NCBI GenBank assembly: GCA_040767085.1
Contig: JAXGPF010000003.1
Location: forward strand, 96,001 to 160,000
Length of the DNA stretch: 64,000 nucleotides
Direction: 5' to 3'
From: Kiritimatiellia bacterium
Lineage (GTDB): Bacteria > Verrucomicrobiota > Kiritimatiellia > JAAZAB01
Shown: positions 23,416 to 59,113 of the stretch, piece after piece
Numbering within the stretch: the first letter of the stretch is position 1
Layout: every line of letters starts with the position of its first letter
The notes under the pieces: generated by a model
What the model was told of the DNA's origin: nothing
The model's database searches: none
The model's input: the letters and a program-made list of their open reading frames with translations, nothing else
Position numbers and translations under genes: made by a program

Positions 23416-23503
23416 ACCGAACAGTATTATTGAGCCTACTTCGCGAATACTGACGGGGCGCATGTGATTATGTATTTATAAATCACATGTGCGCTATTGT
23501 CAA
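23416..23503 (-). promoter_or_regulatory. attI-like site with cassette promoter, copy 1
   Basis: TTGACA(23503-23498)-17-TATAAA(23480-23475), then CGAAGTAGGCTCAATAATACT-GTTCGGT; 24 bp identical to 31964-31987. Confidence 0.7.
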
Positions 23504-26103
23504 ATGCTTAATCCAGCGCCGGATGGTACATTCTCAAATACCTTTAGCGCATCCCGCCGCGTTATGACCGTGTCGTAAAGACCGATGTCCTCGCCCTCGT
23601 GTTTGTTGATGCCGGTGTATCTCAGGCTGGAGTCTTCGTAACGCTTGAACTTGTAAACCGCGTCGTTCATCAGGGCGCTGTTGAACACGCCCAAGCTGAC
23701 CAGCAACTCGAAGTCCTTGACGGTGAGCCCCGTGACTTTCCTGAAGAGGCCGGGTTCAAGTTGTGTAATGACGTCCTTCAGGGTCCGCTCGCGGTAATCG
23801 GTCAGGTACATGAAGATGGGAATCCGCGTGGCGAATTTGATGAGCTTCTCCTGAATCTGTTTGCGCAGGCTCTTGTATTCCTTCTCCTCCTGCGAAAGCT
23901 CCTTCTTTTCTTCCGCGGAAAGCTTCTCGTCGTTGGCTTCCTTGCGCGCTTTCTTGACGGCCTCGGACTTGTTGATGATCGTCGCGATGTCTTGGTTCAG
24001 ATTGCGGAAACCCTCGATGTTCATCAGGGCGTCCATCGCCTTCTTATCAGCCATCAGGCGGCGCAAGGTGTCGTTATCCACATTGACCAGGAGGGCGCTT
24101 TCCCAGCGCCGCGCCAGCAATGTGGCCGTCGTACCGCTCATGGCCATGTCGAGAATCCCGGCGGCATCAATCTGTTTCATGGAACTGCCGTCGTAAGCCA
24201 GCACCGGCAGGAAACTGATGAACTCCTCGACCTTCTTTTCCGGGTTGACCTCATTCAAGTTCAACCGGCAACTGTAATCGGCAATCTGGCGCAATGCCCG
24301 ATCGGGGGCGAAGTCGAAGACGTAGCATTCTTCCTTGATGATCTGCTCGGTGTTCGGAGATGCGCCGTCCGGGTTGCGCACCGTCCAGGGGGATTGCACA
24401 CGGAACGCCGCTTGAAAATATGTTTCCGGGCTCGACGAGTTGCGCAAAATGAGAATACCCGTCCACGGTTTCACTGTCACTCCCGTGGTCAATTTGCCGC
24501 AGGAAAGCGTGATGGTCCTGGTGGCGAGCGGATCGTCCATCGCTTCCAGCACAGGCGGCAAGGCCGCGGCGCCGATCCCGGCGGCGCTTCCCGCCGCCAC
24601 GATGATCTTGTAGTCGTGATAGAAGCGGTTTTGCCTCTTCGCCAGCAGGTTTCGCATGGCATGACAGGCCGCCACGCTGGGCAAAAACCAGAAGGAATGC
24701 GAAAGCACTCCCAGGAGCCGGACATCCGAGAACGGCATCGGCGGCTTTTGCGCGCCCAGTTTCAGGTTGTCCACACTGGCCGGCATGAACGCGCCGCGAA
24801 TCAGGTCCAGCCATTTCTGCACTTCTTCCGCGTACCTGAATTTCGCCTTGTCCCCAATGCCCTCGGCGGAGAAGAACACATTCAAATCGAACTCATTGAA
24901 CTCACCCTGCATGGCGATATCCCGGATCGCGTCGGGCAGTTGGTATGTCAAAAGCACCATTCGGGGCAGCGGGGCATATGGGTTGTTTGGGCCGTTCCAA
25001 TACCGCTTGGCGCGCTGCTCGTCGGAATACGTCCAGTTGTAAATCTGCTCTTCAATGAACTCGCCCGACGCAATGGCCCGGAACGGCGTGCCGGACAGGT
25101 AAAGATACCCGTCCGTGGTGATCGGCATGATCGTTTCATCAAAATCCTCGATGCCTTCGCCCTCGGCGAATTTTCGTTCCTTTTCATCCTCCGACTCGAA
25201 AAGCTCCTTTGCGTTTTCGCGCCAGGCTCCGTAATGGTACTCGTCCAGAATCACGCAATCCCAATGCGTGGTGTGGACCCATTCGTTCTTGGTCTTGATG
25301 CCGCCGGTGCTGGGGTTGCGGCCCAGGTAGTCCTGGAATGAGCCGAAGCAAACAAAAGGCTTTTTCTTGTCCGCTTGCTCATAGGTCAGGCCGCCCGGCT
25401 TGATGAACTGCCAGCCCCGGAAGTCAACATGGCATTTCAAGTCTTCTTCCCAAGCGCTTTGAACGGCGGGCTTGAAGGTCAGAACCAGCACCTTTCGCCA
25501 GCCCATTTTTTTCGCCAACTGATACGCAGCAAAAGTCTTGCCGAAACGCATCTTGGCATTCCAGAGGAAATGCGGCGGCTTGTCCCGGTTGCTTTTGTCA
25601 TTGCGCCAACTGGCGAAATAGGCGGCCGTCTTCTCGACCGCCGCGACCTGTTCCGGGCGCATTTGGAAATCCAGCGACCGATTTTCCTCGTTCAATTGCC
25701 CGGTCCGGACTGCGATGATCGCCGACTTGACTTGGGCCACCGTGCAACGGAACCATTCTCCGTCGGGGTTCTTGATGCCGTTAACCCGCAGCATCCGGTG
25801 CACGTCGTGGTCTGTGAACACCGTCCCGTCATTCCGCATGGCGGATTCTTCGAGAACGATCCGGTACGGCGGCCGGCCGGGCTTCTTTGTCGGATACTGC
25901 TGGGCGACGCGGCCTTGGGCATTCACGGTTGTGTAGCCGATTTTGAGCAGCCCCGCATATTGTGGGTTCGTGTCCTCGTAGGCGTAGATTGTCGGCCTCG
26001 ATGCCGGGCGCGGAGGAAAGAACTCCGGTTCATCCGCAAATGAACGCGAATGAACGCCAATAAGGGAAGAGCCTTTCTTTGATTCGAGTCTAATCGCGCT
26101 CAT
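23500..26103 (-). CDS. T5orf172/GIY-YIG-like nuclease fused to SF2 helicase (restriction-like subunit)
   Basis: IYAY..LLKIGYT..RVAQQ..GEWF N-domain; Walker A AKMRFGKT, DEYH, LSGTP, YFQAAFRVQ. Confidence 0.85.
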   Translation of the reverse strand: MSAIRLESKKGSSLIGVHSRSFADEPEFFPPRPASRPTIYAYEDTNPQYAGLLKIGYTTVNAQGRVAQQYPTKKPGRPPYRIVLEESAMRNDGTVFTDHDVHRMLRVNGIKNPDGEWFRCTVAQVKSAIIAVRTGQLNEENRSLDFQMRPEQVAAVEKTAAYFASWRNDKSNRDKPPHFLWNAKMRFGKTFAAYQLAKKMGWRKVLVLTFKPAVQSAWEEDLKCHVDFRGWQFIKPGGLTYEQADKKKPFVCFGSFQDYLGRNPSTGGIKTKNEWVHTTHWDCVILDEYHYGAWRENAKELFESEDEKERKFAEGEGIEDFDETIMPITTDGYLYLSGTPFRAIASGEFIEEQIYNWTYSDEQRAKRYWNGPNNPYAPLPRMVLLTYQLPDAIRDIAMQGEFNEFDLNVFFSAEGIGDKAKFRYAEEVQKWLDLIRGAFMPASVDNLKLGAQKPPMPFSDVRLLGVLSHSFWFLPSVAACHAMRNLLAKRQNRFYHDYKIIVAAGSAAGIGAAALPPVLEAMDDPLATRTITLSCGKLTTGVTVKPWTGILILRNSSSPETYFQAAFRVQSPWTVRNPDGASPNTEQIIKEECYVFDFAPDRALRQIADYSCRLNLNEVNPEKKVEEFISFLPVLAYDGSSMKQIDAAGILDMAMSGTTATLLARRWESALLVNVDNDTLRRLMADKKAMDALMNIEGFRNLNQDIATIINKSEAVKKARKEANDEKLSAEEKKELSQEEKEYKSLRKQIQEKLIKFATRIPIFMYLTDYRERTLKDVITQLEPGLFRKVTGLTVKDFELLVSLGVFNSALMNDAVYKFKRYEDSSLRYTGINKHEGEDIGLYDTVITRRDALKVFENVPSGAGLSI

Positions 26104-26109
26104 TCGCGT
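26034..26109. repeat. Short-period palindromic repeat (CGCGAATGAA type) overlapping the helicase start
   Basis: CCGCAAATGAACGCGAATGAACGCCAAT ... ATTCGAGTCTAATCGCGCTCATTCGCGT. Confidence 0.7.
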
Positions 26110-26951
26110 TTCCCTATCCTCGACTGCTTTCCCGCCGGCGGCAGGAAGTTCTCGCCGGTCACTACCTTGCGCCCCGTCTTCTGCTCCAACTCCCGCCGCG
26201 CCCGTTTGGCGATGCGTCCGCCTTTCTTCCCGGCCTCGGCATTTTCGCCCATGCCGATCGCTTCCACGCTTTCGGCGATCTGGCGGGTGGACAATTCCGC
26301 CAGCGCGGTGAAGATCAGCTCCGCCTCGCTCATGTGATCACGCAGGTTCTGCGCCTTGAGCCCTTTAATAGCCTTATGCTTCTTGACCGAAACCCCGCTC
26401 CATTCCTGGTGGATGATATTGGTCAGGATGGAATATTCCTCCTCGCCTTTGATCTCGTGGTCCTGCCAATAATCGGTGAGCTTGTTGCGGGTTTCCTGCC
26501 CCATCATCCGCTGCTGAATCCATTTCTCGCTGCGGCCGTGCTTCTTCCAGTATTCCCGTGCCCGGTCCAGCGACCGCACCGGGTCGCTCATGTCCTGGAT
26601 GCGCTCATACCCTACCTTGGCCAGCCAGAGTTTGATCGGTTCTGCCCTGGGACTGGGGACGGATTGAATAATCCGCAGAAGTGTTTCAGGGTCAGCAACA
26701 TCCGTCAGATAGGATTTTCCGTCAGCCGCAGGCAGTTTCAGTCGGTTACATTTTGTAACCGACTCACTTCCCTCGCTTTTAAGCCGGTTTTTCAGGACTT
26801 TCCAGTAATTGCGGGCGGCCTGATAGTCCGGTTGCTGGATCAGCGCCGCGACGATGTCCACCACGGAGAAATACCAGGTCTCCGACTTCTTGTCGTAAAC
26901 GCGCCGGATTTTGAAATCCTCAAAGACAGCCAATGCTTTTTCGTTTGTCAT
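26100..26951 (-). CDS. Bro-N domain (antirepressor-like) protein
   Basis: IRRVYD...WYFSVVDIV...ARNYWKVLKNRL...LRIIQSVPSPRAEPIKLWLAKVG. Confidence 0.85.
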   Translation of the reverse strand: MTNEKALAVFEDFKIRRVYDKKSETWYFSVVDIVAALIQQPDYQAARNYWKVLKNRLKSEGSESVTKCNRLKLPAADGKSYLTDVADPETLLRIIQSVPSPRAEPIKLWLAKVGYERIQDMSDPVRSLDRAREYWKKHGRSEKWIQQRMMGQETRNKLTDYWQDHEIKGEEEYSILTNIIHQEWSGVSVKKHKAIKGLKAQNLRDHMSEAELIFTALAELSTRQIAESVEAIGMGENAEAGKKGGRIAKRARRELEQKTGRKVVTGENFLPPAGKQSRIGKRE

Positions 26952-26967
26952 GGTTGACCTGCCGAAT

Positions 26968-27150
26968 TATCCACAGATGACGCAGATTTTTGCAGATTAT
27001 TTTCGGTGGATCCGGTATCTGCGTTAATCCGTGGAATCAGCGAATTATTCATCTGCTTCATCCGGAATGATTATCCGCAGATGGCGCAGATTTTCGCAGA
27101 TTATTTTCGGCGGATTCCGGTATCTGCGTTAATCTGTGTAATCTGTGGAT
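26968..27150. repeat. Tandem palindromic units built from about 9-nt GCAGAT repeats
   Basis: CCRCAGATNRCGCAGATTTTYGCAGATT...ATCTGCGTTAATC twice; same unit at 33001-33130 and 34577-34750. Confidence 0.85.
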
Positions 27151-27152
27151 TA

Positions 27153-28758
27153 TTATGCCTGCTCATCGACCCCGCTTTCCGCCTTGTCATTATCCGCTGG
27201 CATTGGGCGGACAATGGAGGAAATAAAATCAATCTCAGCCTGCGTTAGCTTGAAATGCTTGTTAAGTTTGTCATCAGTCCATATTTCTGTCATTGGAAGT
27301 TGAGGAACGAAGGCGAACCGCTCCTTTGTGATATGTTGCGTGTTTTTCCGCAATCCAACCAAAAATCGGAAGAAGTGGGTTCGCATGTACGCAGCAAGGT
27401 GTTCTGCCTCGTCCTTTGTCTTGTATGACCCAATGACGATGTAAGTTTCCGTACAGGCACTGGGCGGGCTTGCCACAATAGGTTTGCCCATAATCATTCG
27501 AGGGTATTCCCGGGCTTCGCCGCCTTCGGACTTCCAGCGTGATCGTAACCCACATATGATGTCAATAACCTTCCAAAGATCAATCATATCGACGCCAACA
27601 GTAATGTCTGATTTCGGATCTTTTGGCCCTACTCGCCATTTCTGCCAACGCAAAATAATTTGATCACCTTGTCCTTCTGAGGCCGTCACGTAAGTTCTAA
27701 GTCCAAAATGGTTTTTGTCTAGCAGACACTTGCTCGCTCATGCGACAAAGAAGGATCTTTTCTTGACAAGGACCCTTCGTCCAAATGATTGGGAAACAGC
27801 CTTATTGAAGCGAGCAAACGTATGAAAGTCGGAAACTCGTTGAGAGGTAAGCGTAGTCGAAACAACGTCGTTCATCGTTATGCACGTTCGTGACTTCGAG
27901 CAAGGTCCACGAGTAATCACGCTCCCATAAGAAATAACATATTCCATCCGCTATAACCTTGACACCGGGAAATACGTCGGAAGCAATCGGATAATCAACA
28001 AGATGAGAGATACGTCGGTCGTGTAGCATTGCATCTCGGAACTCGTCAAGACCTTTGCCGCCAGCGAACCAGCGTGAGGGTATTATCATGGAAAGGAAAC
28101 GAGGGTTCAGCTTCTTGGCTTGCTCAACGAAGCGATTGTAGATGGGGGATGCCCCTGTGCTTTCGCCTGCATCACTCAATTGGTACGGTGGATTACCGAT
28201 AATTACATCAAATTTCATTTTGAAAATTCCCTCATGTTTGTCGGTGTGGATGAACTCATATGCATGGCTTTCATACTCTCGCCCGCGGTCGTACTCCTCC
28301 TTGCTGGCGCGACAAAACACACAACGGCCATTTACCCATGTGTGTTCCACTCGCCCGAAACGGATGTTGCCGGCGGGCTTGTCAAACAACTCACAGACGG
28401 AATATTTGCCGTTGGCGGTCTTGGAGCAATAGACGGAGCGGCGCGACAGCAGAGCGGTCAGTTCCGTAATTGCGAGCCCGTAGAGTTGATTTTTGAAGAT
28501 GTGGTTCATGCGCTGCAGGCGGTCAGGAATCTGGGCCTCCAGCCCCTTGTCCAGCCGCTTGGCGATCTCGCGCAGAAATACGCCCGACTTGCAACCGGGG
28601 TCAAGAAAGGTGGCTGTCTTGTCGCTCCAAAGTTCCTGCGGCAGCAGGTCCAGAATCCGGTTCACGAGTTGCGGCGGCGTGAACACCTCGTCACTACTCA
28701 AGTTGGCGATACAAGACAGCACATCCGGATTATAGTTGTCTGTGTTCATCTGCGTCAT
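27153..28758 (-). pseudogene. Eco57I-like adenine DNA methyltransferase, frameshifted (decay or indel errors)
   Basis: [29 protein letters not shown]-terminal CTETY...RFLV..RKNTQH in another ORF (27153-27689); breaks between about 27500 and 27950. Confidence 0.8.
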
Positions 28759-29194
28759 CCGCAGACCTCCTCTGTTTCAACCGCAGATAGCGCAGATGAA
28801 CGCAGATTGTAAACAAAGCGCTTGTACTCGAGTCGGATAGCGCCAAAGTTGATCAGCAGAGCTTTGTGCAGCCTGGATGCTTTCAGGTAGTTGATCACTT
28901 GTGCCTCCTCCGTCCCGAAAGCTGCTTCAGCGCCTTGAGTTCGACAATCACCGCTCCGGAGCAAACGTAATCGGCTTTGTAGAACGTGTTCAATGGCTTA
29001 CCGCGATAGAACACCGGCAGTTCCTTTTCGCGTTCGTAAGGGATGCCCCTGAACCGAAACTCGCGTTCCAGCGCTTCCTGATAGACTGCTTCCAGAAAGC
29101 CAGACCCAAGGTCTGAATGCACGGCCATAGCTGCTCCGATTATCGCGTATGTCTCCGCATCTTTATTACCGTTATCTGCGTCAATCTGCGTCAT
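28755..29194 (-). CDS. GxxExxY family protein (one frameshift near 28915)
   Basis: [25 protein letters not shown]...ADY...IVELKA, continuing as [11 protein letters not shown]...LLINFG in the next frame; the break is in a G run. Confidence 0.88.
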
Positions 29195-29852
29195 CTGCGG
29201 ATTCCTTTTTCCCCAACTCCAGGAAATGCATGGGCGGATATTCGCGGATTGGCGTTGGGATGAAGACGTCTTCCCCCAGATCGGAGAAAAGCGGCAGTTC
29301 CTTCATGCCCTCGTGCGTCAGCAGTCCGTGAAACGTGAAGTCCCTCCGTTTGAGCATGCTGCCGTTGACCGGCGACCATTCAGAAAATACGATATAATCC
29401 GGTTTTTTGCCGACTGTTTTCAAGGTCAGGGCGTCGCCCCAGATGATATTGCGCCCAAGGATGAAACGGACCGCCTCGCGGCATTTGTTCTTGGCGCGGT
29501 CCTCGAACAGCCGGGAATAAAAGTCACAATCGAACACGCCAAAAAGCCGGTGCCGGCACTGGTGGACATTGTCCTCCAGGATGTCAATGCCGTAGATCGA
29601 AGAGACGGCCAGGACGGCATAACGCTCGAAGTCCAGTTGCGACTTGCCGTAGCGCTTTTCCACCACGGCGAGTTTCCGTTCCAGAATGGCCGTCAGGAAA
29701 TTCCCATTGCCGCAAGCCGGTTCGAGGAAGCGGGAATCAATCCGGTCCGTTTCCTGTTTCACGAGGTCGAGCATGGCGTTGACCTCGCGTTTGCCGGTCA
29801 ACACCTCGCCATGCTCGGCGACCCGCTGTTTCGATATGACTTGCGATTCCAT
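29181..29852 (-). CDS. Short SAM-binding DNA-methyltransferase-like protein with no visible catalytic motif IV
   Basis: RVAEHGEVLT, FLEPACGNGNFL, IYGIDI, NIIWGDAL; no NPPY/DPPY. Confidence 0.8.
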   Translation of the reverse strand: MESQVISKQRVAEHGEVLTGKREVNAMLDLVKQETDRIDSRFLEPACGNGNFLTAILERKLAVVEKRYGKSQLDFERYAVLAVSSIYGIDILEDNVHQCRHRLFGVFDCDFYSRLFEDRAKNKCREAVRFILGRNIIWGDALTLKTVGKKPDYIVFSEWSPVNGSMLKRRDFTFHGLLTHEGMKELPLFSDLGEDVFIPTPIREYPPMHFLELGKKESADDAD

Positions 29853-29936
29853 CTGTGATTTATTTTCGTGGCCTGACTCACTCAGAAGCGCCATTTCACG
29901 TATCACCAGCAGGCTCGATGCTCTTGTTCGAGCGCT

Positions 29937-30107
29937 TTATACAAACGAGTCGCAATACTTCTGCCATTTCTGAGCCAAGAACTGCAACCTGCCTTGCTTG
30001 TAGACCGCCTTTTTGCTGTTCGTCTGTTGCGCCATATGAATGACATCGAGAAGAGTGTTTGCTTCTTTTTTAGAAATGTCGAGCTTGTAATATTTCTGTG
30101 ATGACAT
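29937..30107 (-). CDS. Small hypothetical protein
   Basis: MSSQKYYK... preceded by GAGGTGGG; no recognised motif. Confidence 0.35.
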   Translation of the reverse strand: MSSQKYYKLDISKKEANTLLDVIHMAQQTNSKKAVYKQGRLQFLAQKWQKYCDSFV

Positions 30108-30296
30108 ACCCACCTCTAACACCGGCTGCGGAATTGGGGCCTGTTTCAGTTTCGGCACAATAACTACGCGAGGTATTATGACTCTTTCGTTAAGGACGAT
30201 AAAACGATATCATCCAGCAAGTCCTCTGCGATCACGTTGGGTTGGGAAATCAGAGCTTCATATTCTTTTCTGGTCATCTTTTATCCTTTTGCTCGA

Positions 30297-30434
30297 ATCA
30301 GGATAGAGGGGCGACTCGCGACTGCCTCCCCACCCCGCCTCGTGACGACGCAGTTGCCCTTTCGCTTCCCTTCGGCTTCTCCTTCACCTGGCGTGGGTAC
30401 TTGCACACCACAAGTTACGTGCCATCCCCGGCAC
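30297..30434 (-). ncRNA. 138-nt group IIC intron remnant inserted in an attC site
   Basis: First about 110 nt nearly identical to the 5' end of 21384-21779, joined directly to CGCGAGTCGCCCCTCTATCCTGAT (domain VI end); domain V absent. Confidence 0.8.
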
Positions 30435-30498
30435 GCTCAGGCGCACCGGACGCCTGAAGCGACAGCGGAAGGCGGTACGGTGACGCCTGTTGTTCGGT
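30433..30498 (-). repeat. attC site split by the intron remnant (remaining TCGAG at 30292-30296)
   Basis: ACCGAAC AACAGGCGTCACCG...CGGTGCGCCTGAGC GT | intron | TCGAG. Confidence 0.8.
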
Positions 30499-30502
30499 TC
30501 GC

Positions 30503-31138
30503 TCATTCCATCAAGATTGCTGCAAGACCTTTTTCAGGATCCAGTATGAGTCCCGCCAGAGCGAGGAGCAATGCCAAACCCTGGCAGATGACGAGTTTGT
30601 TAGTCCAATAGCGCCGTTGCGCCTTCAGGTGCAGAATCCCGTGCTCGGTTTGCTTCACCATGCTGAAAAAGCTATGACTGGCAGTTCCAAGCAGGGCTAC
30701 CCTGCGAGCAGAGAGTTCGCGAGCTCTGTTTGCCCAATCAGTCGGCAGCGGTTGAACCAATTCGTCGGGCGGAGGCTGGCGGATTGAAGCGAGGAGAAGA
30801 CAAATTGCCTCAGTCATGCTTTCGAGATAAGCGTGTGCTGAGGCCGCTTCCATTTGGCGAACATCGGCGACGTCTTTGTCAGACTTGAGGACTTGGAGTA
30901 TCCGCTTCGCCTGTGCACTCGAAACGCTCTGCCAACTGACATCGGCTGCGCGAGCCACCGCCTGATTCGCCTCCGTATGGGCGATTCTCAGGTCAGCAAT
31001 CAGTTTTTCCTTCTTTTCGATTCTACTTTCAAATAATAGAGGCACGACTGAAAAGCCGACCGTGGCAACGAGCAAGAGCGCCGCGGACGCTACGAGGCAC
31101 AGAATGTGGATCAATGGGATTGCTTCGAGTGCTGTCAT
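30503..31138 (-). CDS. Hypothetical membrane protein (gene cassette)
   Basis: N- and C-terminal hydrophobic segments; bounded by attC sites. Confidence 0.65.
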   Translation of the reverse strand: MTALEAIPLIHILCLVASAALLLVATVGFSVVPLLFESRIEKKEKLIADLRIAHTEANQAVARAADVSWQSVSSAQAKRILQVLKSDKDVADVRQMEAASAHAYLESMTEAICLLLASIRQPPPDELVQPLPTDWANRARELSARRVALLGTASHSFFSMVKQTEHGILHLKAQRRYWTNKLVICQGLALLLALAGLILDPEKGLAAILME

Positions 31139-31157
31139 CCTTTCATCTTTCTCTTGA

Positions 31158-31217
31158 ACCGAACGTCGCAAATCAGCGGCGCGGTTTACCGCGTACGCTG
31201 GATTTGTCTTGTTGGGT
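31158..31217 (-). repeat. attC site
   Basis: ACCCAAC AAGACAAATCCAGCGTACGCGG-TAAA-CCGCGCCGCTGATTTGCGAC GTTCGGT; 60 bp. Confidence 0.85.
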
Positions 31218-31943
31218 TTCTCCATCTGTTGCGGTTGGAATGGCCTTGATTGCCTTCACACGTTGATCGTACTCGTACAGCGTGACCTTTATCTTCTGTC
31301 CTGTGTTGTCGCCTATGTATTGCGCGGCCGCGGCAAGCATGACGGGGAACACCTTTCTCAGGTCACCGGAAGAACCTGTGCTGAAGATGTCTGTCTTCCA
31401 AACCTGTTTCTCCTCTTCTGCCTTGCGGTACGCCGCAAGATCTAAAGCGTTGAGAGAAATGTAGCGGGTGAAGGTGACGTATGTTCCTGAGTATTGTCTG
31501 GAACCTACCACTCCATAGGTTGGGGTATGTGTTGTCGTCCCGGAATAGGTTGCGCTGTTTCCGTAGGAATACAGGGAACCGTATGTGTGCGACGAGGAGA
31601 CTCCAGTTTGCCCGTAAACGGGAGTCGAGTAGCTGTATTGATGTTGGGAAGGGTCAGAAATGTCGTAGTAGAGAAAGATGGCAATGTCAGCTTCGTCAAG
31701 ACCATCGGTCTTGATGAAGCCCTTCTGCTCAAGGGCACGATGGGTGTATGTTGCGAACTCCTGAAACTGGAGATCACCAGGGTTCACGCCCTTCTTTCCT
31801 GGAAACAAGAAGTACTTCCGGGCTGTGGGTTGGCCAGAACTGATGGAATCGATTCTTACATCGTAATGCGGCATCGTGGCGCAGCCAGAGCAAACCAGTA
31901 CAATCATCATTGGTACGATGGCCCATGACATGAAGTTCTTCAT
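31173..31943 (-). CDS. Lipoprotein, DUF4136-like (first cassette of the upstream array)
   Basis: Lipobox VCSGC; RBS GAGGAG; reads into attC. Confidence 0.75.
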   Translation of the reverse strand: MKNFMSWAIVPMMIVLVCSGCATMPHYDVRIDSISSGQPTARKYFLFPGKKGVNPGDLQFQEFATYTHRALEQKGFIKTDGLDEADIAIFLYYDISDPSQHQYSYSTPVYGQTGVSSSHTYGSLYSYGNSATYSGTTTHTPTYGVVGSRQYSGTYVTFTRYISLNALDLAAYRKAEEEKQVWKTDIFSTGSSGDLRKVFPVMLAAAAQYIGDNTGQKIKVTLYEYDQRVKAIKAIPTATDGETQQDKSSVRGKPRR

Positions 31944-31959
31944 TCTCTTGTCTCCTCAA

Positions 31960-32048
31960 ACCCAACAGTATTATTGAGCCTACTTCGTGAAATCTAACTG
32001 GCCGCATATAGCTGTGTCTTTTATAACCACAATGGTGGCCATTGTCAT
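31960..32048 (-). promoter_or_regulatory. attI-like site with cassette promoter, copy 2
   Basis: ATGACA(32048-32043)-17-TATAAA(32025-32020), then CGAAGTAGGCTCAATAATACT-GTTGGGT; the GTTGGGT is complementary to the cassette's own ACCCAAC. Confidence 0.72.
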
Positions 32049-32597
32049 ATATTTAATCTATTGACTATCAACTGATTATCCTGATCGCCTGCCTTCAAGA
32101 TCGGCTTTATGCATATCCATGAATTAGGCTTTATGCCGACAAACATCATAATCTGGATCAATGTAATTCATAAAGACTACCTGGAACGCTTTCTCGAAAA
32201 TATTTGATTATTTTAGGGATAGCTCCATTTTTTCAACACAGGCGCACACTGCTCGCAGTCAGATTACCTCAAAGCCATCCCCCATCTCAACGAAATGTCG
32301 AATCGGCAGCGCAAAACCAACGTTCATAACGCAATCCTGATTTATATCATTCGAACCGGATTATTAATTTATAGGACTGACCCCCTCTGTCTGACAAACG
32401 GTCATAGATGGGCTTGCCAGCGCGATAGTACGCCAAATGTTGGACAAAACTGACAACCAGTGGGTACTGGTTTCGGAATATGTCGGAATCGTATTTCATT
32501 CTTTGACACAACGTCGCGAGTCACCGGACAGTGTAAGACGCGCTCCGGCGTAGCGCACAGGGTCACAGGCGCACATGGTCAGACCTCAAATTAAAAC

Positions 32598-32828
32598 TTA
32601 ATATCTCATCCGCCGTGCCGCTCCAATGAGTTTATGTCTAACAATCGCCCGGCTGCCGCCACCCAACGCGCCCGTGTTTGATATTCCAATCTGGAACATC
32701 AAACGCGCAACATCTTGCTCGGGAATGGCGAACATATAATCTAGAGGGAACCGACCGCAGTTTCGTGCTACCGCTTTGTTGAGGTCTCCGTTGACTGCGT
32801 CGATTTCCTCTGTGGTTTCGATCTTCAT
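32598..32828 (-). pseudogene. ORF6N-domain fragment
   Basis: LNKAVARNCGRFPLDYMFAI...LMFQIGIS...GG. Confidence 0.6.
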
Positions 32829-32984
32829 CGCTCTGGCAGAACAACATTATCCAGCATTTTTTTAAATATAGATCAATCTCAGAAAATCGGCAATAAAATA
32901 ATTTTGATAAGTTCATGGATAACAAGTAATTATTACTAATTAGCATTGGGTGTTAATAACTTTACCCGGGCGCAGATGCACGGT

Positions 32985-33131
32985 CATCCACAGAAGATTT
33001 ATCCGCAGATTACGCAGATTTTCGCAGATTATTTTCTGAGGATCCGGCATCTGCGTTAATCTGCGTAATCTGTGGATTATTTCTCTGCTTCATCCGGAAT
33101 GATCATCCGCAGATTACGCAGATTTTCACAG
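32985..33131. repeat. GCAGAT palindromic repeat unit
   Basis: One full unit of about 104 bp plus the start of a second, matching 26968-27150. Confidence 0.85.
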
Positions 33132-33141
33132 GCACGTGTGA

Positions 33142-33726
33142 TCACCGCCGCGGTTTACCGCGTACGCCGGATTTGCTTTTTTGCGCTTTTAATTTCAGAC
33201 GTTCCCGAATTTGTTTGAATTGGTCGCGCATGCCTTCGGCGACAGACCATCTTTCGATTTCTTTGATGTCTATCTTATTATTGCAGGCTACGGCAACCGC
33301 TTGGTCAAGGCACTGTCGATCATGATCGTGATAGAACCAAGTGAGTCTGTCTTTGACACAGTCGGTGGGCGATATGATCAGGAGCATTCCAGTGGCTGTT
33401 TTAATCTTTAGAATGTCCTTAACAGGTTCTTCCCCGACGGCTGGGGGGCCTTGAGGAAACTCGATAAACAGGTCGGTATCCGGGTGTTTGAAATATCGTC
33501 CGTTTTCGGAAAATCCCAGTTCCTGCATTGCCGCGCGAAGCTCGCTGCGCTTGGGTGCCATTAGCGCAGTGTGTATCAGGTCCAAGTCCATTGACAGATA
33601 TTTCCCCCGGCTGTAGATTGAGACACAGGCCCCGCCGGACAGCACCACGTCTATGCCTCTGACGCGCAGGCGCTCCTGTATGAAAGCGGCAAGTTCCGCT
33701 CTGTCCATTTCGCTGATTGACTTCAC
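33142..33726 (-). CDS. Nucleotidyltransferase-fold protein (possible toxin of a TA pair)
   Basis: VVLSGGACVSIYS...SMDLD (GG..DxD); ends in an attC remnant. Confidence 0.7.
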   Translation of the reverse strand: MKSISEMDRAELAAFIQERLRVRGIDVVLSGGACVSIYSRGKYLSMDLDLIHTALMAPKRSELRAAMQELGFSENGRYFKHPDTDLFIEFPQGPPAVGEEPVKDILKIKTATGMLLIISPTDCVKDRLTWFYHDHDRQCLDQAVAVACNNKIDIKEIERWSVAEGMRDQFKQIRERLKLKAQKSKSGVRGKPRR

Positions 33727-34052
33727 AATGGTTTTCCAAGACGCCTGGGCCTGCGCCTGTTCATAATAAGTTTTTCTTTCAAGTCTTCAGGACAGAACGT
33801 CATCACCTTGACAAGAAGATTTTTAAGCTCCGCCAGGAACGGACAACGAGGATTGAATGAATACAACCTTGTCCGTCCGACAGACCGGCTGCGGAGAATG
33901 CCTCCGATCTCAAGTCGATCAAGCTGGTTTCGAATAGGCTTGTAATCAACGCCGAAAAAACGTGCTATTTCGCGTGGATAACCCTCTCCGCGGGCTGAAA
34001 TGAACAACAAGACTTGTTCGCAACTTCTTGAACCAACCAAATATTCCAGCAT
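33723..34052 (-). CDS. Winged-helix (ArsR-like) DNA-binding protein
   Basis: YPREIARFFG...IRNQLDRLE.GGIL.SR.VGRTRLY; 4-bp overlap with the downstream gene. Confidence 0.8.
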   Translation of the reverse strand: MLEYLVGSRSCEQVLLFISARGEGYPREIARFFGVDYKPIRNQLDRLEIGGILRSRSVGRTRLYSFNPRCPFLAELKNLLVKVMTFCPEDLKEKLIMNRRRPRRLGKPL

Positions 34053-34469
34053 TGGCCATACTCCTCAACCTTGCATTAATTGATGTCATGCATGCATCAC
34101 ATGATGCACTATTTACATCAATATACATCGGACATTTTTAACACGCAAGATTATTCTACCTGAATTTTGCACCGCGCAAGTTTGGCGCAGGGCGCGGCGC
34201 GAGGGGTGCCGCTGTATAAATATACCGCAAATCCCCGAGCAACAAAGCCCTGCACCAAAAACTTGTCCGCCATAGTCGGACGGCGGCGGATCGCGCGGCT
34301 GGCTGCCGGCGAATATTGGTGTTTCCGGAAAATTTACTTGTGTAACCATATGGGTGATAGCAAATAACTGTGCAAATATTAATTTGCACTCGCTATGATT
34401 GCTTTAAATCATTTCAACACCAATATTCGTGCAAAATTCAGGTTCTACAGAATTCCTGGTTCTGCCATT

Positions 34470-34544
34470 ATCCTGGTTTTTAACCAGCCGGTCGTTGATG
34501 TATTTATGCAGGACGCTCGACAACAGCGTTTGGTACGGCATCCC
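34470..34544 (-). pseudogene. C-terminal remnant of a second RHH antitoxin
   Basis: GMPYQTLLSSVLHKYINDRLV matches GLPYQTLMASILHRYAAGRFV of 21788-22108. Confidence 0.65.
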
Positions 34545-34576
34545 TTTACAGGCGCACAGGGCCAGACTTCAAATTA

Positions 34577-34750
34577 GGATTACGCAGATTTTCGCAGATT
34601 ATTATCAGAAGATCCGGCATCTGCGTTAATCTGTGAAATCTGCGGATTATTTCTCTGCTTCATCCGGAATGATCGTCCGCAGATTACGCCGATTTTCGCA
34701 GATTATTATCAGAAGATCCGGAATCTGCGTTAATCTGCGTAATCTGCGGA
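34577..34750. repeat. GCAGAT palindromic repeat, nearly two tandem units
   Basis: Same unit and same linker TTCTCTGCTTCATCCGGAATGAT as 33001-33130. Confidence 0.85.
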
Positions 34751-34893
34751 TTATTTCTTCCCATTGGACGCGTGGCGGTCAAGAGCCTGACCGTTCTACC
34801 AAATTCAGGACAATTACGAAAATATTAATAAGTCGGAACAGACGGCTCACGGCACGTTCGCCCTCCAGCGGAAGCAGAGCGGGACGGGGGCCG

Positions 34894-34976
34894 GTCCTGA
34901 GCTTGTCGAATGGGCGTCCCGGCTCCAACGGGAACAGAGTGCGAAGAGGGCTTGTCCTGAGCTTGCCGAATGGGCG
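34894..34976. repeat. REP-like GTCCTGAGCTTG(T/C)CGAATGGGCG, two direct copies
   Basis: Copies near 34894 and 34954; related reverse copy CCCTCGACAAGCTCGGG near 41124-41141. Confidence 0.65.
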
Positions 34977-36212
34977 TTACCGGTCCAGCCAGCGGCCGTC
35001 GAAGAGCAGATTGATGTCGCGCTGGATTTCCGCGCGCGTTACAAGCCAGCCGGCGCGGGCCAGGTCGAGGTATTTCTGGCTCAGGACGTCGCCGATGATG
35101 CCCCGGGAATGCCGCCATTTATAGATGAGCTGGTCGAGCACGCGGGCGTCGGAATGCTGGGGAATGAACGACAAACCGAGCATTTCCAGGCGCATGGCGG
35201 TAATCTCCCGGATGAGCGACGGGTTGTTCAGGAACCACCAGCAGCCGAATGGCAGCAGATTCTTGAACTTGCGCGCGGCCACGCAGAGCGCGTGCATGTT
35301 CTCGCGCGCCAGCATGGTCACCATGAACCGGACGTCGCCGAAATCCCGCGCCAGGTATTCCACCGTCTCCATCAGGGCGCAGCCCACGGAGTCGCCGGCA
35401 AGGACCAGGTCGGGGTTGACCAGTTTCCGGACGCCGATCATCATCGCCACGGGAATCCCGCGCTCGCGCGCGACGGGAATGGCCGCTTTGACCATGAGGT
35501 TTGTGATGCTGGATTCCACGTCGGGATAGCGGAAATCCGGCGGCAGACTGATGGCCAGGTAGCGCGCGTCCATTTTGTCGCACCACTCCATCAGGTACCG
35601 GCGCACTTCGGCCAGGGTCGGACCGGAAAGCGAGGTATCCGTCCGGTACCCCATCTGGCGCAGCCGCCCTGCCCCGGCCGGCCAGTTCATCAGGGCGCTG
35701 TCCAGGCGCAATACCGCCAGGAACCGGGAATCGCGCTGAAAGCCCCGCAGCCACACCGGCTGCTCCGCCGGATCCAGCGGATCGTTGGTCATGTAAACCT
35801 TGCGGATACCGGCCAAATCCAATACGCGGTCGGTATAGTCCCGGACATTCTGCCCGGCGAAATACTCGCGGTAGGTTTTCAGCGACCGCGCCGCGACATC
35901 CAGGCCCAGGGCGTCCAGCACCGTCAGCACCCCCCGGCAGGCTTCGGATACCGGCGAGCGTTTGACGAACAGTTCCTCCCAGACCAGTTCTGCCTGCCGG
36001 GCCTTGGGTTCCGCCAGGAAGTTCCGGCATTCCCAGTCCGGCCGGGCGCGCATGACTTCCGCCAGCAGGTAGTGATATGTCAGCAGTTCGTCAATCCCCC
36101 AGAGCAGCAACGGCCCCATGGCGGGATCGAAGGTATGGGTATGGATGTCGGTGATGGGCGTGGATGCCATTAATTCACTGACTGCCGCGCGTATTTCCGT
36201 TTCCTGGTTCAT
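34977..36212 (-). CDS. uxaC: Glucuronate isomerase-like amidohydrolase-fold protein
   Basis: ITDIHTH, WGIDELLTYHYL, GCWWFLNNP, QHSDARVLDQLIYKW. Confidence 0.82.
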   Translation of the reverse strand: MNQETEIRAAVSELMASTPITDIHTHTFDPAMGPLLLWGIDELLTYHYLLAEVMRARPDWECRNFLAEPKARQAELVWEELFVKRSPVSEACRGVLTVLDALGLDVAARSLKTYREYFAGQNVRDYTDRVLDLAGIRKVYMTNDPLDPAEQPVWLRGFQRDSRFLAVLRLDSALMNWPAGAGRLRQMGYRTDTSLSGPTLAEVRRYLMEWCDKMDARYLAISLPPDFRYPDVESSITNLMVKAAIPVARERGIPVAMMIGVRKLVNPDLVLAGDSVGCALMETVEYLARDFGDVRFMVTMLARENMHALCVAARKFKNLLPFGCWWFLNNPSLIREITAMRLEMLGLSFIPQHSDARVLDQLIYKWRHSRGIIGDVLSQKYLDLARAGWLVTRAEIQRDINLLFDGRWLDR

Positions 36213-36227
36213 ATATCACGCCCTCTC

Positions 36228-36285
36228 GTCTGTGTCATCCGCGGATTATTTTTTATCCACAGATTACGCAGATTTTCGCAGATTA
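36228..36285. repeat. GCAGAT repeat arms, partial unit
   Basis: TCTGTGTCATCCGCGG...CCACAGATTACGCAGATTTTCGCAGATT. Confidence 0.7.
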
Positions 36286-36483
36286 TTTTACCTGAATACG
36301 GCAAACGGAAAATCCTCTCACCCGCCTTCGTCAAGACTACGGTGGGCAAGCCCAAGCCACCAAGAAAGCACCAGCAGGAACTGCCGCATAGCAGCATGTT
36401 TTCCTTCACCGCTCGTCCTTCGTGGCTTAGTGTCTTTGTGAGATAATAAAGCGGGTTTCCACGGGAAGTTACTGAACCTGAAT

Positions 36484-37860
36484 TTATTTCTTCCCGCCCA
36501 ATACTTCGTCAATCGCCTCTTCAAAGACCCGGATGGACTCGCGCAGCGCATCCCGGGTGATCGTCAGGGGCGGCGCGATCTTCAGGCATTCCCCGCCGAT
36601 GCCGACAGGCGCAAACATCAGCAAGCCTTTCTGGAAGCAGGCGACGTTGATCCGCTGCGCCAGTTCGGGATTAGGCTCCTTGGTGCCGGGTTTGACCACC
36701 TGGATGCCGGCCACCAGGCCCTTGCCCTGAGTGCAGCCCAGCACGTCCGGGTACTTCTGCTGGATGCGGCGCAATTCGGGTATCAGGATTTCGCCCATGG
36801 CGGCGGCATTGGCCGTCAGGTTATCGCGCAACAGCACCTGCAGGTTGGCCAGGGCGGCGGCCACCGGCAGGGGCGAACCGGAATGGGTGGAAGTCATCGA
36901 GCCGGGGGCGTACAATCCCTGGATATCGCGGCGGCCAATCACCGCCGCGATGGGCAGCGAGGAGGAAATGCCCTTGCCGCAGGCAATCAGGTCCGGCGTG
37001 ACGCCATAATGCTGATAACAGAACATTTTCCCGGTGCGGCCGAACCCGGCCTGGACTTCATCAAAGCACAGGACGATGTCATGTTCCCGGCAGAATGCCT
37101 CCAGTTTTTTGGCGTATTCCACCGGCAGGAAGTCCGGCCCGATGCCCTGGTAGCTTTCCGTCATCACCCCCGCGACTTCTTCGGGCTTGATGTTCCGGTC
37201 GCGCAGGGTTTGCAGGAACTGGTCAAACGACTGGTTGGTGTTCTTATAGCCGTCGGGGAACGGGGTCTGGATGAAAGTCTGGTCGCTTTCCCCAAGCCAT
37301 TTTTTCAGCTTGGCCATGCCGCCGGCCAGTTGGGCGCCCATGGTGCGGCCGTGGAAGGCATTGTTAAAGGAAATGAAGTAACGTTTCCGCGGGCCATGCT
37401 TTTCCATGGCGTAGGTCTTGGCAAGCTTGATGCAGTTTTCCGTGGCCTCGCTGCCGGAACTCAACAGGAAAACCGTGTAATCGGGGGGTTTCGGCGCCAG
37501 CGACTGCAGGAGGGCGGTCAGTTCCGCGCGCTGCTCATGCACGAAAACATAAGTGGAAAGCAGTCCCTGGTTGATGATCCGGAGCAGGGCTTCGCGGATT
37601 TCAGGGTGGTTATGCCCGACATTCGTGATCAGCACGCCGGAGGACCAGTCCAGCCAGCGGTTGCCCCAGCGGTCGCTGACGGTGATATCCTCGGCCTTAT
37701 GCCAGACGATCGGCGGCTGACCCATCATGGATTGCGGCTCGGTCTGGCGCAGTTTTTCGAAAATCGGCAGGGATTCAGGCACCGGTAGCTTGGTTTTGAT
37801 GGTGCGGTACTTCGTATTGACATGCGGAACATCCACCGGGGTAAGATCGTAAACAGCCAT
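36484..37860 (-). CDS. Class III PLP-dependent aminotransferase
   Basis: SGSEATE, AFHGRT, FDEVQAGFGRTG, PDLIACGKG. Confidence 0.93.
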   Translation of the reverse strand: MAVYDLTPVDVPHVNTKYRTIKTKLPVPESLPIFEKLRQTEPQSMMGQPPIVWHKAEDITVSDRWGNRWLDWSSGVLITNVGHNHPEIREALLRIINQGLLSTYVFVHEQRAELTALLQSLAPKPPDYTVFLLSSGSEATENCIKLAKTYAMEKHGPRKRYFISFNNAFHGRTMGAQLAGGMAKLKKWLGESDQTFIQTPFPDGYKNTNQSFDQFLQTLRDRNIKPEEVAGVMTESYQGIGPDFLPVEYAKKLEAFCREHDIVLCFDEVQAGFGRTGKMFCYQHYGVTPDLIACGKGISSSLPIAAVIGRRDIQGLYAPGSMTSTHSGSPLPVAAALANLQVLLRDNLTANAAAMGEILIPELRRIQQKYPDVLGCTQGKGLVAGIQVVKPGTKEPNPELAQRINVACFQKGLLMFAPVGIGGECLKIAPPLTITRDALRESIRVFEEAIDEVLGGKK

Positions 37861-38051
37861 GGCAAAACCTCCTATGATAGCATGATTGCCTCATTCCCGA
37901 GCGGAAAAGAGGTAATATTTCTTATAGCAAACTGCCCTGCTATGTCAAGCAATAACCGCCAATCTGTCGTAAACAAATGACTTGGCCGCATAATTAACAA
38001 ATGATTTGTCCGCTTAAAGCTGTCAGGATGGTGCATTCAAAGGGGGGTTAT

Positions 38052-39236
38052 ATGGATGAATATCCGAAGGCAGCACTGGAGCGGGCAATGAAGGTACAGG
38101 AAGTGATCTTGCGTGCGATTGAAGGGCGGTTAATGTGGTGGGAGGCGGCGGAGATACTAGGTGTGAGCTACCGGACCATGCGGCGCTGGAAAGGGCGCTA
38201 CGAGCGGTATGGTTACGACGGGCTGCTGGATCGTCGGCGGAAGATACCGGGGCCGCGGCGCGTGCCCCTTGCGACGGTGAAGCAGGTGCTGAGGTTGTAC
38301 CGAGAAGAATACATGGATTTCAATGTGAGGCATTTTCACGAGAAGCTGCAGGCGGAGCATGGGATCGAGCTCAGTTATCAGTGGGTCAAGAGCGCCTTGC
38401 AGACGGCCGGGTTGGTGGCGAAGGCCCGGAAACGAGGGCCGCATCGGCAGCAGCGGGAACGGCGACCAATGGCGGGGATGATGTTGATGGTGGATGGCAG
38501 CACCCATGCCTGGTTGCCCCTGCTGGCGGGCCAGAAGCAGGATCTGATCCTGGTGATGGACGATGCCACCAGCGAAGTCTACACGGCCTATCTTGTGCCC
38601 CAGGAAGGGACATTAACGGTGATGAAGGGGTTGAAAGAAGTCATTATTAAACATGGGGTTTTCTGCAGTCTGTACACGGATCGTGGCAGTCATTTCTTTT
38701 ATACGCCCAAAGAAGGCGGGGCGGTGGACCGGCGTCAATTGACGCAAATTGGACGGGCGTTGCAACAGTTGGGGATCGAACATATTCCGAGCTATAGCCC
38801 CCAGGGACGTGGGCGAATAGAGCGGATGTTTAAGACCTGGCAAGGGCGCCTGCCGCAGGAATTAAGGCAGGCGGGAATCCGGACGATGGCCGAGGCCAAC
38901 GTCTATATTCAACAACAGTTTCTGCCTTCCTTCAATCGCAACATGAAGGTGAAGGCGCGGGAAACAGGAACGTGTTTCGTGCCTTGCGGTGAGCAGGATT
39001 TGGACAGCATTTTCTGTGTGCAGCATGCGCGAGAGGTTCAAAATGACAATACCGTGGCTGTCGGGAGTCGCCGCTTGCAGATTGGACCATCAAAATGGCG
39101 TTTCAGCTTCGCCAAGTGCCGGGTTAAAGTCTGCGAGCACCTCGATGGCACGGTGTCCATCCGTTATGGCCCGCATGTGGTTGGCCGCTACCAAGGACCG
39201 TTGAACATTTCGGCGTCGCTGGAGGACGTCGCATAA
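38052..39236 (+). CDS. DDE transposase (HTH + integrase core)
   Basis: DGSTHAW, MDDATS, LYTDRGSHF, SPQGRGRIERMFKTWQGRL. Confidence 0.92.
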   Translation: MDEYPKAALERAMKVQEVILRAIEGRLMWWEAAEILGVSYRTMRRWKGRYERYGYDGLLDRRRKIPGPRRVPLATVKQVLRLYREEYMDFNVRHFHEKLQAEHGIELSYQWVKSALQTAGLVAKARKRGPHRQQRERRPMAGMMLMVDGSTHAWLPLLAGQKQDLILVMDDATSEVYTAYLVPQEGTLTVMKGLKEVIIKHGVFCSLYTDRGSHFFYTPKEGGAVDRRQLTQIGRALQQLGIEHIPSYSPQGRGRIERMFKTWQGRLPQELRQAGIRTMAEANVYIQQQFLPSFNRNMKVKARETGTCFVPCGEQDLDSIFCVQHAREVQNDNTVAVGSRRLQIGPSKWRFSFAKCRVKVCEHLDGTVSIRYGPHVVGRYQGPLNISASLEDVA

Positions 39237-59098: not shown

Positions 59099-59113
59099 TT
59101 TTTCTTTCTTTTC

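Follow-up and report, generated by a model that had tools for sequence, protein, structure and literature searches.

The window analysed here is a 64,000-nt stretch of a Kiritimatiellia genome (contig JAXGPF010000003.1, positions 96,001 to 160,000 of the forward strand), and all coordinates below refer to it. Between 23500 and 29906 it holds an operon, all of whose genes lie on the minus strand, with internal junctions that are palindromes built from phased heptamers, mainly CGCAGAT. Two of the genes, encoding a GxxExxY (PDDEXK_3) protein and a Bro-N domain protein, had been viewed in an original prediction, made from the letters of the window, as passengers that an integron-independent system slots into operons. 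Our analysis points to a small selfish element, namely a GxxExxY gene whose inverted repeat arms are translated as its own ends, which together with shortened hairpin derivatives has probably invaded a decaying restriction-type operon. The open reading frames (ORFs) and repeats of the operon are listed below; MTase stands for methyltransferase.

29181..29906, minus strand: MTase1, small N6-adenine methyltransferase-like protein of 241 aa (PADLOC MTase_II, 2.5e-11)
29174..29202: arm A, with three minus-strand CGCAGAT heptamers that code in two frames (MTase1 end ...ESADDAD*, GxxExxY start MTQIDAD)
28895..29194, minus strand: GxxExxY (PDDEXK_3), 99 codons of the N-terminal part, cut short by a frameshift (Pfam PF13366, 2.7e-26, profile positions 3-83 of 117; NCBIfam TIGR04256)
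28758..28997, minus strand: GxxExxY, C-terminal part, read in another frame and ending inside arm B (hmmsearch E 7.1e-21, profile positions 97-146)
28739..28807: hairpin in which arm B (28781-28807) faces arm A' (28739-28762), the latter providing MTase2 with its ATG and MTQMNTD
27802..28758, minus strand: N-terminal fragment of MTase2, Eco57I-type methyltransferase, 318 aa (Pfam Eco57I, 1.1e-37; tblastn with plasmid orthologues, residues 13-326, frame -3)
27153..27737, minus strand: C-terminal fragment of MTase2 in another frame, after an in-frame stop (tblastn residues 371-538, frame -1)
26965..27154: CGCAGAT-family hairpin units, two in tandem of 104 nt each, separating MTase2 from Bro-N
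26100..26951, minus strand: second passenger, a gene for a 283-aa Bro-N domain protein (Pfam Bro-N; PADLOC candidate PDC-S13, 2.5e-118, positions 1-274 of 286)
26034..26110: variant palindrome, in frame within the helicase gene and containing an ATGA stop/start overlap
23500..26103, minus strand: T5orf172 (GIY-YIG-like) and ResIII helicase, 867 aa (Pfam; PADLOC REase_MTase_IIG, 3.7e-26)

Palindromes form the operon junctions and supply protein ends

Palindromes occupy all four internal junctions of the operon (29174-29202, 28739-28807, 26965-27154 and 26034-26110), where the original prediction had placed them. Their building blocks are the heptamers CGCAGAT/ATCTGCG at a spacing of 9-10 nt, with a CGCGAAT type at 26034. 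Counted on both strands, ATCTGCG occurs 42 times in the window as against 11.4 ± 3.3 times in shuffled sequence (n = 100; maximum 18; 0 of 100 shuffles reached 42), and a two-heptamer pattern matches 26 times where 8.7 matches were expected. Thirteen of the 42 occurrences fall at 26981-29199 and 19 at 32971-36283, outside the operon, the other 10 being scattered.

The arms contribute coding sequence to the genes on either side. The last six codons of MTase1 and its stop codon lie inside arm A, and MTase1 overlaps the GxxExxY gene there by 14 nt (29181-29194). Within the palindrome at 26034-26110 the last three codons and the stop of the Bro-N gene run into the helicase gene, the ATGA at 26100-26103 serving as stop of the one and start of the other, and the helicase begins with MSAIRLESKKGSSLIGVHSRSFA... 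The protein ends quoted beforehand (ESADDAD*, MTQIDAD, MTQMNTD and the helicase N-terminus) were exact. The accompanying claim of start/stop overlaps within the repeats held for MTase1/GxxExxY and Bro-N/helicase but not for MTase2/Bro-N, where the repeat holds only the MTase2 stop codon, the TAA of the C-terminal fragment falling in the end of the repeat that follows. The idea that passengers enter without polarity is not supported, and both MTase2 and GxxExxY are broken in the window. The profile match of the frameshifted GxxExxY gene is divided between 29302-28898 and 28997-28758, and the 99-aa fragment scores above the curated cut-offs (TIGR04256 94.4 bits, cut-off 35; PF13366 92.7 bits, cut-off 22).

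Four inverted pairs underlie these junctions: 26965-26997 with 27122-27154 (33 nt, 82% complementary), 28739-28762 with 28783-28806 (24 nt, 83%, separation 20 nt), 28781-28807 with 29174-29200 (27 nt, 85%, separation 366 nt) and 26043-26062 with 26091-26110 (20 nt, 85%). The third of them brackets the GxxExxY ORF, so that arm B can pair either with A' or, across this ORF, with arm A; in the predicted fold of the entire 491-nt stretch, the outer arms, those bracketing the ORF, pair with each other. The stretch 26965-27154 consists of a 104-nt unit repeated twice in tandem (91% over a 46-nt repeat pair), and an alignment of operon and non-operon copies as one family gives the unit a layout of arm, ~19-nt loop, arm and ~27-nt linker. 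On the operon strand, the predicted folds reach -36.5 kcal/mol at 28730-28815 (z -5.8), -31.5 kcal/mol at 27062-27160 (z -4.9) and -30.5 kcal/mol at 26960-27060 (z -3.7). The fold of 26025-26120 has a comparable energy of -32.0 kcal/mol but a z of only -2.5, with 2 of 200 shuffles being equally stable. Its heptamers also differ (CGCAAAT/CGCGAAT/CGCCAAT, spacing 10/10), and the palindrome at 26034-26110 is a variant and not a typical copy of the CGCAGAT family.

Three further clusters of the family lie outside the operon, which brings the window total to at least 8 hairpin units at 7 sites in 64 kb:

32971..33133: hairpin cluster of ~1.5 units (predicted fold -49.7 kcal/mol, z -9.5, the best copy)
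34583..34755: two tandem hairpin units
36240..36290: single arm and a remnant

Several features of this part of the window are recorded here as observations. The G+C content is 0.44-0.50 at 27000-28000 and 32000-35000 compared to ~0.55-0.65 elsewhere in the window; low values around the broken MTase2 and the hairpin-rich stretch are consistent with foreign or decaying DNA. Between the clusters at 32971-33133 and 34583-34755 sits a second repeat-flanked gene set on the minus strand (33142-34052), made up of a 109-aa helix-turn-helix protein (PADLOC candidate PDC-M05A, 9.3e-10) and a 194-aa ORF without a family match. Another codon-lending repeat, a stretch of ~45 nt (…GCGGTTTACCGCGTACGC.GGATTTG), is common to 31165-31215 and 33140-33190, in each case at the 3' end of an ORF (31173-31943 and 33142-33726, unrelated to each other), and gives both ORFs the identical C-terminus VRGKPRR. 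About 2 kb from the last hairpin remnant there is an ISNCY-family transposase gene (38001-39236, plus strand; NCBIfam 2.9e-105).

Orthologous operons lack both passengers

Orthologous operons were found by tblastn of MTase1 against plasmids. Plasmid p3 of Acuticoccus (L129) and pRphaN671a of Rhizobium phaseoli (L130) carry the same three-gene operon, with products of 193, 524 and 852 aa and of 215, 538 and 847 aa, respectively. In both, the order is small MTase, Eco57I-type MTase and GIY-YIG-helicase, in a compact arrangement with stop/start overlaps of 4 nt and 8 nt, and both operons lack GxxExxY and Bro-N genes as well as heptamer arrays. The three ancestral genes of the window follow in the same order at 42-60% identity. 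The ancestral operon is restriction-modification-like, of a split Type IIG-like kind composed of small MTase, Eco57I-type MTase and GIY-YIG/helicase. As passengers and repeats are missing from both plasmid operons, GxxExxY and Bro-N are insertions at the two ancestral junctions, each bounded by repeat arms.

The alignments also locate the ends of the extra DNA. MTase1 is 42-45% identical to the plasmid small MTases and remains conserved up to YPPM..L, after which a divergent tail of similar length follows. At the start of MTase2, MTQMNTD replaces ~10 native residues and alignment with the orthologues resumes at NPDVL. The helicase, 60% identical to its plasmid orthologues, carries a 22-residue insert (SAIRLESKKGSSLIGVHSRSFA) directly after Met1, which is the palindrome at 26034-26103 translated in frame. 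The extra DNA in the window thus starts and stops in repeat arms to within ~10 codons, the resolution that orthologues of 42-60% identity allow, which is the coincidence of passenger breakpoints with arms that the original prediction had expected.

These results bear on the idea behind that prediction, a dedicated recombination-site system independent of integrons that slots passengers into operons while preserving the translation of their neighbours. It would account for two repeat-bounded passengers that the orthologous operons lack and for start/stop overlaps rebuilt within the arms, and the gene pair at 33142-34052 likewise lies between hairpin clusters. However, such a system sits badly with the broken MTase2 and GxxExxY genes, and the Bro-N gene, too, fits it poorly. 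Palindromes of two different heptamer variants flank this gene in the window, and its relatives stand alone or are embedded elsewhere, for instance between cas4 and cas1 in Arcobacter cloacae pACLO, with no heptamer arrays beside any of the relatives that we examined.

The motif GATGA(G/A)C, found by eye at both edges of the insert at junction 2, was considered as a possible duplication and judged too weak to claim. Plasmids L128 and L129 have a gene for a tyrosine recombinase immediately before the small MTase homologue, on its upstream side; in L129 it heads the full MTase/MTase/helicase operon, while the L128 record ends ~0.9 kb past the small MTase. This arrangement suggests that the MTase/MTase/helicase locus itself travels as a mobile module.

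The CGCAGAT repeat is a family spread over many phyla

We scanned both strands of a species-representative genome collection (596 Gb) for the exact arm, CGCAGAT-NN-CGCAGAT-NNN-CGCAGAT (21 specified bases). The arm occurred in at least 127 stretches, where by our own estimate ~0.3 would be expected by chance; the genome of the window is absent from the matches listed. Record titles name at least 15 phyla, and cultured isolates are represented, among them Geothrix fuzhouensis, Draconibacterium sediminis and Oligosphaera ethanolica. Represented are Verrucomicrobiota, Planctomycetota, Chloroflexota, Acidobacteriota, Bacteroidota, alpha-, beta- and gamma-Pseudomonadota, Nitrospirota, Desulfobacterota, Myxococcota, Cyanobacteriota, Armatimonadota, Sumerlaeota, Hydrogenedentota, Kiritimatiellota and Lentisphaerota. 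Most arm loci have an inverted partner arm nearby. Of 265 spacer positions, 143 agree between partner arms compared to 108.5 ± 7.5 for shuffled partners (maximum 134, n = 1000), the outer 2-nt spacer agreeing well and the inner 3-nt spacer poorly.

The surroundings of the arms were surveyed with Pfam for 176 ORFs from 77 loci, after L017, L051 and L054 had been dropped as overlapping duplicates. The neighbours belong to unrelated housekeeping families (HSP90, citrate synthase, ABC transporters, thiolase, IF3, aminotransferases and others), many small ORFs have no Pfam match, and none of the 176 belongs to a transposase, integrase or other recombinase family. Of the 77 loci, 29 lie between tandem genes, 20 between convergent and 3 between divergent genes, 19 have a gene on one side and 6 lie inside a long ORF, some of these ORFs possibly being spurious. 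At L009, L016, L031, L058 and L064 the element comes within a few bases of both neighbours, or neighbouring ORFs end in the arms. Siting at operon junctions and the lending of codons are therefore a general habit of the CGCAGAT family.

The repeats are thus specific neither to this operon nor to defence genes: three clusters of the window lie outside the operon, and housekeeping genes are the neighbours elsewhere. Of the proposed slotting system, the part that stands is that both passengers are repeat-bounded insertions. A family present at 127 or more places beside unrelated genes, mostly as ORF-less hairpins and with no recombinase among the flanking ORFs scanned, argues against the remainder, as does L016, where hairpins flank an ordinary ABC-transporter ATPase gene. 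We regard a dedicated cassette system as improbable.

Two side observations concern these loci. At L016, on a gammaproteobacterial chromosome (OZ242265.1), the hairpins flanking the oligopeptide ABC-transporter ATPase gene are complete (2001-2142 and 3785-3945), and both neighbouring ORFs terminate 19 nt into the first one. Other phased short repeats were seen by eye beside CGCAGAT arms at L012, L015, L039, L044, L080, L083, L098 and L114 (CACAGAG, CACGGAT/CACGAAT, TCGGAAC, CGCGAAT/CGCCAAT and others) and may represent sister families. The CGCGAAT-type arrays at L080 and L083 also come from inspection by eye, our detector for other phased heptamers being dominated by CGCAGAT by construction.

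Transcribed hairpins at gene ends could also be kept by the host as RNA elements of polycistronic transcripts, namely RNase III sites, 3'-end stabilisers or insulators, a role that would be compatible with a selfish origin. Stable stems of 24-33 bp are indeed predicted on the transcribed strand, and the preference for gene 3' ends (20 convergent against 3 divergent loci) agrees with such a role. Yet a terminator scan of the operon strand gave nothing terminator-like at the hairpins, and an Rfam scan of 25500-37000 (E ≤ 1) returned only chance-level microRNA hairpin models, far under their gathering scores (best E 0.12), and no rRNA. Moreover, conservation of the heptamer sequence across phyla is unnecessary for a stem. 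A parallel comes from the 23S rRNA intervening sequence of Coxiella, a similar architecture whose heptamer-repeat stem is cut by RNase III (PMC4990558); the RNA-processing boundaries of the original prediction thus have a described parallel. As the explanation of the family, maintenance as host RNA elements nonetheless seems rather unlikely to us.

The intergenic palindromes in alternating tandem arrays also recall repetitive extragenic palindromic (REP) elements and their assemblies, bacterial interspersed mosaic elements (BIMEs), which a REP-associated tyrosine transposase (RAYT) would mobilise. The window does contain a RAYT-like gene with an IS200-like Y1 transposase domain (57991-59001, minus strand, 336 aa; Pfam Y1_Tnp 5.2e-12; NCBIfam REP_Tyr_transpos 8.4e-16, under the cut-off), but it is flanked by an inverted repeat of its own, GGGGTCAGTCCCGTA (~57989-58003 and 59085-59100), which is unrelated to CGCAGAT, and no RAYT flanked by the CGCAGAT palindromes was found in the window. 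Among the 176 flanking ORFs there is no Y1_Tnp match. REP families are known as lineage-specific, whereas the CGCAGAT arm is common to at least 15 phyla. We consider this origin very improbable.

The arms correspond to the translated ends of a GxxExxY gene

Inverted arms around a GxxExxY gene recur in Ca. Thiosymbion oneisti (L076), a Planctomycetota metagenome-assembled genome (MAG; L087) and Pontiella (L053, the same locus as L054). At these loci an arm contains either the start of the ORF (MTQMYADKD) or its end (NLRESA*, HLRTSASSAD). A search with the GxxExxY protein of the window gave 1717 matches at E ≤ 1e-5, from which we took the 119 closest homologues (69-87% identity, own protein excluded); these are mostly 131-163 aa long compared to the 99 aa of the window fragment, and homologues of full length mostly have ~140-150 aa. 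The arm peptide M(NPQI)TQ[MI][DN]AD stands at the N-terminus of 105 of the 119 and NLR.SA.SAD at the C-terminus of 93; both are present in 81, and most of the others have partial versions. Read from the arms, the end peptides are PQITQMDAD... and ...NLRESAKSAD. The arms are thus the translated ends of the GxxExxY gene itself, and this accounts for the conservation of the heptamer. It is also a further point against the cassette system, in which the arms bounding GxxExxY would be recombination sites.

Named sources of GxxExxY homologues at 72-81% identity are Pirellulales, Hydrogenedentes, Marinimicrobia, Desulfarculus baarsii, Nitrococcus and Methylohalobius. For comparison, the aspartokinase of the window is 75% identical to those of Kiritimatiellia/Lentisphaerota and 69% to those of Verrucomicrobiota, falling to ~40% outside its own group. 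Near-identical GxxExxY proteins in several phyla fit horizontal spread. In the only survey with an entry for PDDEXK_3 that we came across, Steczkiewicz et al. list the family as of unknown function and with 'multiple transfers' (PMC3424549).

A Deltaproteobacteria MAG (L068:2001-2200) holds a 56-residue GxxExxY remnant between arms (E 1.7e-14), in which profile positions 17-29 are joined to positions 102-139 and MAYQRTYKIIGAALKV is fused to QLINYLKA... This remnant is an apparent intermediate on the way from the ORF-bearing to the ORF-less form. The family as a whole is very large, its profile matching 25,293 clusters (50% identity) at E ≤ 1e-3. At the protein level, two members with other terminal repeats, P0297 (ends ITPITPI / GVIGVIG) and P0317 (ends TQMSQMT / SVTSVTSV), have end pairs compatible with a single repeat translated from both strands. 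An ESM Atlas search with homologue P0070 returned GxxExxY clusters only.

A probable selfish cassette with hairpin derivatives

Taken together, we favour, with a probability of roughly 0.6, a selfish GxxExxY cassette with translated inverted ends and MITE-like hairpin derivatives (MITE, miniature inverted-repeat transposable element) that has invaded a decaying restriction-type operon. In this model the repeats would be copies of a selfish palindromic DNA family whose arm comprises three CGCAGAT heptamers 9-10 nt apart, i.e., about one helical turn. The ORF-bearing form would be a ~450-bp GxxExxY gene of the PD-(D/E)XK superfamily (PDDEXK_3) with its first and last codons lying in inverted arms, and the ORF-less hairpins would be shortened, MITE-like derivatives of it. 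At junction 1, the GxxExxY cassette and one extra arm would have been inserted; at junction 2, a Bro-N (PDC-S13) gene would have been inserted independently and would have come to be flanked by hairpins. Because ATG occurs within the arms and some of their frames are open, neighbouring genes can start or stop in them or, as in the 22 codons of the helicase, be read through them. The putative GxxExxY nuclease may recognise the heptamer arrays, or a hairpin or cruciform that they form, and transcribed stems of 24-33 bp would be substrates of RNase III, as in 23S rRNA intervening sequences. The impression is of a locus that has been invaded and is decaying, not of one that was neatly built.

Several points weigh against this model. 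GxxExxY accompanies the arm at only 4 of 124 distinct places among the matches listed, plus one remnant, so that most hairpins would need mobilisation in trans or may spread otherwise. Arm-like tails occur, by a rough pattern, in only 44 of the best 150 representatives of the 50%-identity clusters (22 N-terminal, 30 C-terminal, 8 both), many GxxExxY proteins having no tails, and a role of the terminal peptides in the protein could be what conserves the arms. At the three positions of the inner spacer, the arms are complementary in just 30, 22 and 17 of 53 cases, which would be unexpected if only hairpin structure mattered. Inspection by eye of the flanks of copies gave no consistent target-site duplication, and no solved GxxExxY relative was found in the PDB by sequence or profile (0 matches). 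The frameshifts in MTase2 and GxxExxY could be assembly errors. Finally, we infer the mobility of the elements, and movement itself was not observed.

A broader proposal would take GxxExxY proteins as the nucleases of an unrecognised minimal class of mobile DNA, defined by a ~450-bp gene, translated phased-heptamer arrays and widespread hairpin derivatives, with the intervening sequences of rRNA as architectural relatives and a life in operons by insertion at stop/start overlaps whose frames are rebuilt from the arms. We put this forward tentatively, with the odds against it. If true, few known MITE-like families would be as widely distributed as the ORF-less derivatives (at least 15 phyla).

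Linking a GxxExxY subfamily to a cross-phylum palindrome gives a testable function, that of a nuclease acting on its own ends, and would account for numerous small 'hypothetical' ORFs and for unusual gene ends in annotation. Starts and stops inside such arms need care from annotators, and in defence islands an insertion at a repeat-bounded junction need not mean a cassette system.

Comparison with known systems

Selfish palindromes resembling MITEs or rRNA intervening sequences are already known, and in the literature that we found, which yielded a table entry for the protein family and otherwise unrelated mentions, the CGCAGAT repeat and its tie to GxxExxY are without description, subscription journals and curators' family texts lying outside the search. 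The likeness to integron attC cassettes lies in promoterless genes between imperfect palindromes, in one orientation and in a transcribed array. In contrast to attC sites, the CGCAGAT arms are phased heptamers without the R''-L''/L'-R' core organisation, and most copies carry no gene. Neither an IntI integrase nor attI was found, and the 53 ORFs scanned in the window include no member of any integrase family.

RNase III processes Correia transcripts. Together with that family (Correia/NEMIS), hairpin-forming MITEs such as BOX, RUP and ERIC, along with REP/BIME, are described in a review of MITEs as short, multicopy, ORF-less, intergenic inverted repeats that form tandem clusters and possibly affect mRNA (PMC10969869). 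The CGCAGAT hairpins resemble them in size and terminal inverted repeats (units of 66-104 nt, arms of 24-33 nt, no ORF) and in copy number (at least 8 units in the window and at least 127 places in other genomes). As for an autonomous parent, GxxExxY genes share the hairpin ends and L068 is intermediate, mobilisation by GxxExxY being putative. The family differs from these MITEs in having no transposase-encoding parent of a known insertion sequence family, the putative parent being a 140-150 aa PD-(D/E)XK gene, as well as in its arms of phased heptamers, its cross-phylum range and target duplications that are not defined.

Rickettsia palindromic elements insert in frame into protein genes and are translated, as the same review describes (PMC10969869), and the 22-codon in-frame insert at the N-terminus of the helicase behaves alike. 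They are, however, ~150 bp long, confined to Rickettsia and without a linked nuclease ORF, whereas the CGCAGAT family occurs in many phyla and mostly at gene ends.

The closest architecture is that of the 23S rRNA intervening sequences (IVSs) of Coxiella, Leptospira and Salmonella, whose ORF encodes the S23p four-helix bundle. The IVS of Coxiella is a selfish element of 428 nt, in which a terminal stem of 28 bp closes a loop that carries the S23p ORF; three GACAGAT heptamers precede this ORF, and RNase III cuts at the first of them (PMC4990558). The likeness thus comprises a small ORF in the loop of a ~28-bp stem of terminal inverted repeats, three 5' heptamers that share CAGAT with CGCAGAT, a selfish character with an ORF that is often decaying, and a stem cut by RNase III (PMC4990558). 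The differences are as clear. IVSs reside in helices 25/45 of 23S rRNA, whereas the CGCAGAT elements lie between or in protein genes with no rRNA around them by Rfam at 25500-37000. The ORF is S23p in one case and GxxExxY/PDDEXK_3 in the other, the Coxiella heptamers are described as tandem while CGCAGAT recurs with a period of 9-10 nt, and CGCAGAT arms are translated as the ORF's own ends, cutting of their stems by RNase III being proposed by analogy only. The GxxExxY-repeat element offers a parallel for the unexplained intervening sequences of rRNA.

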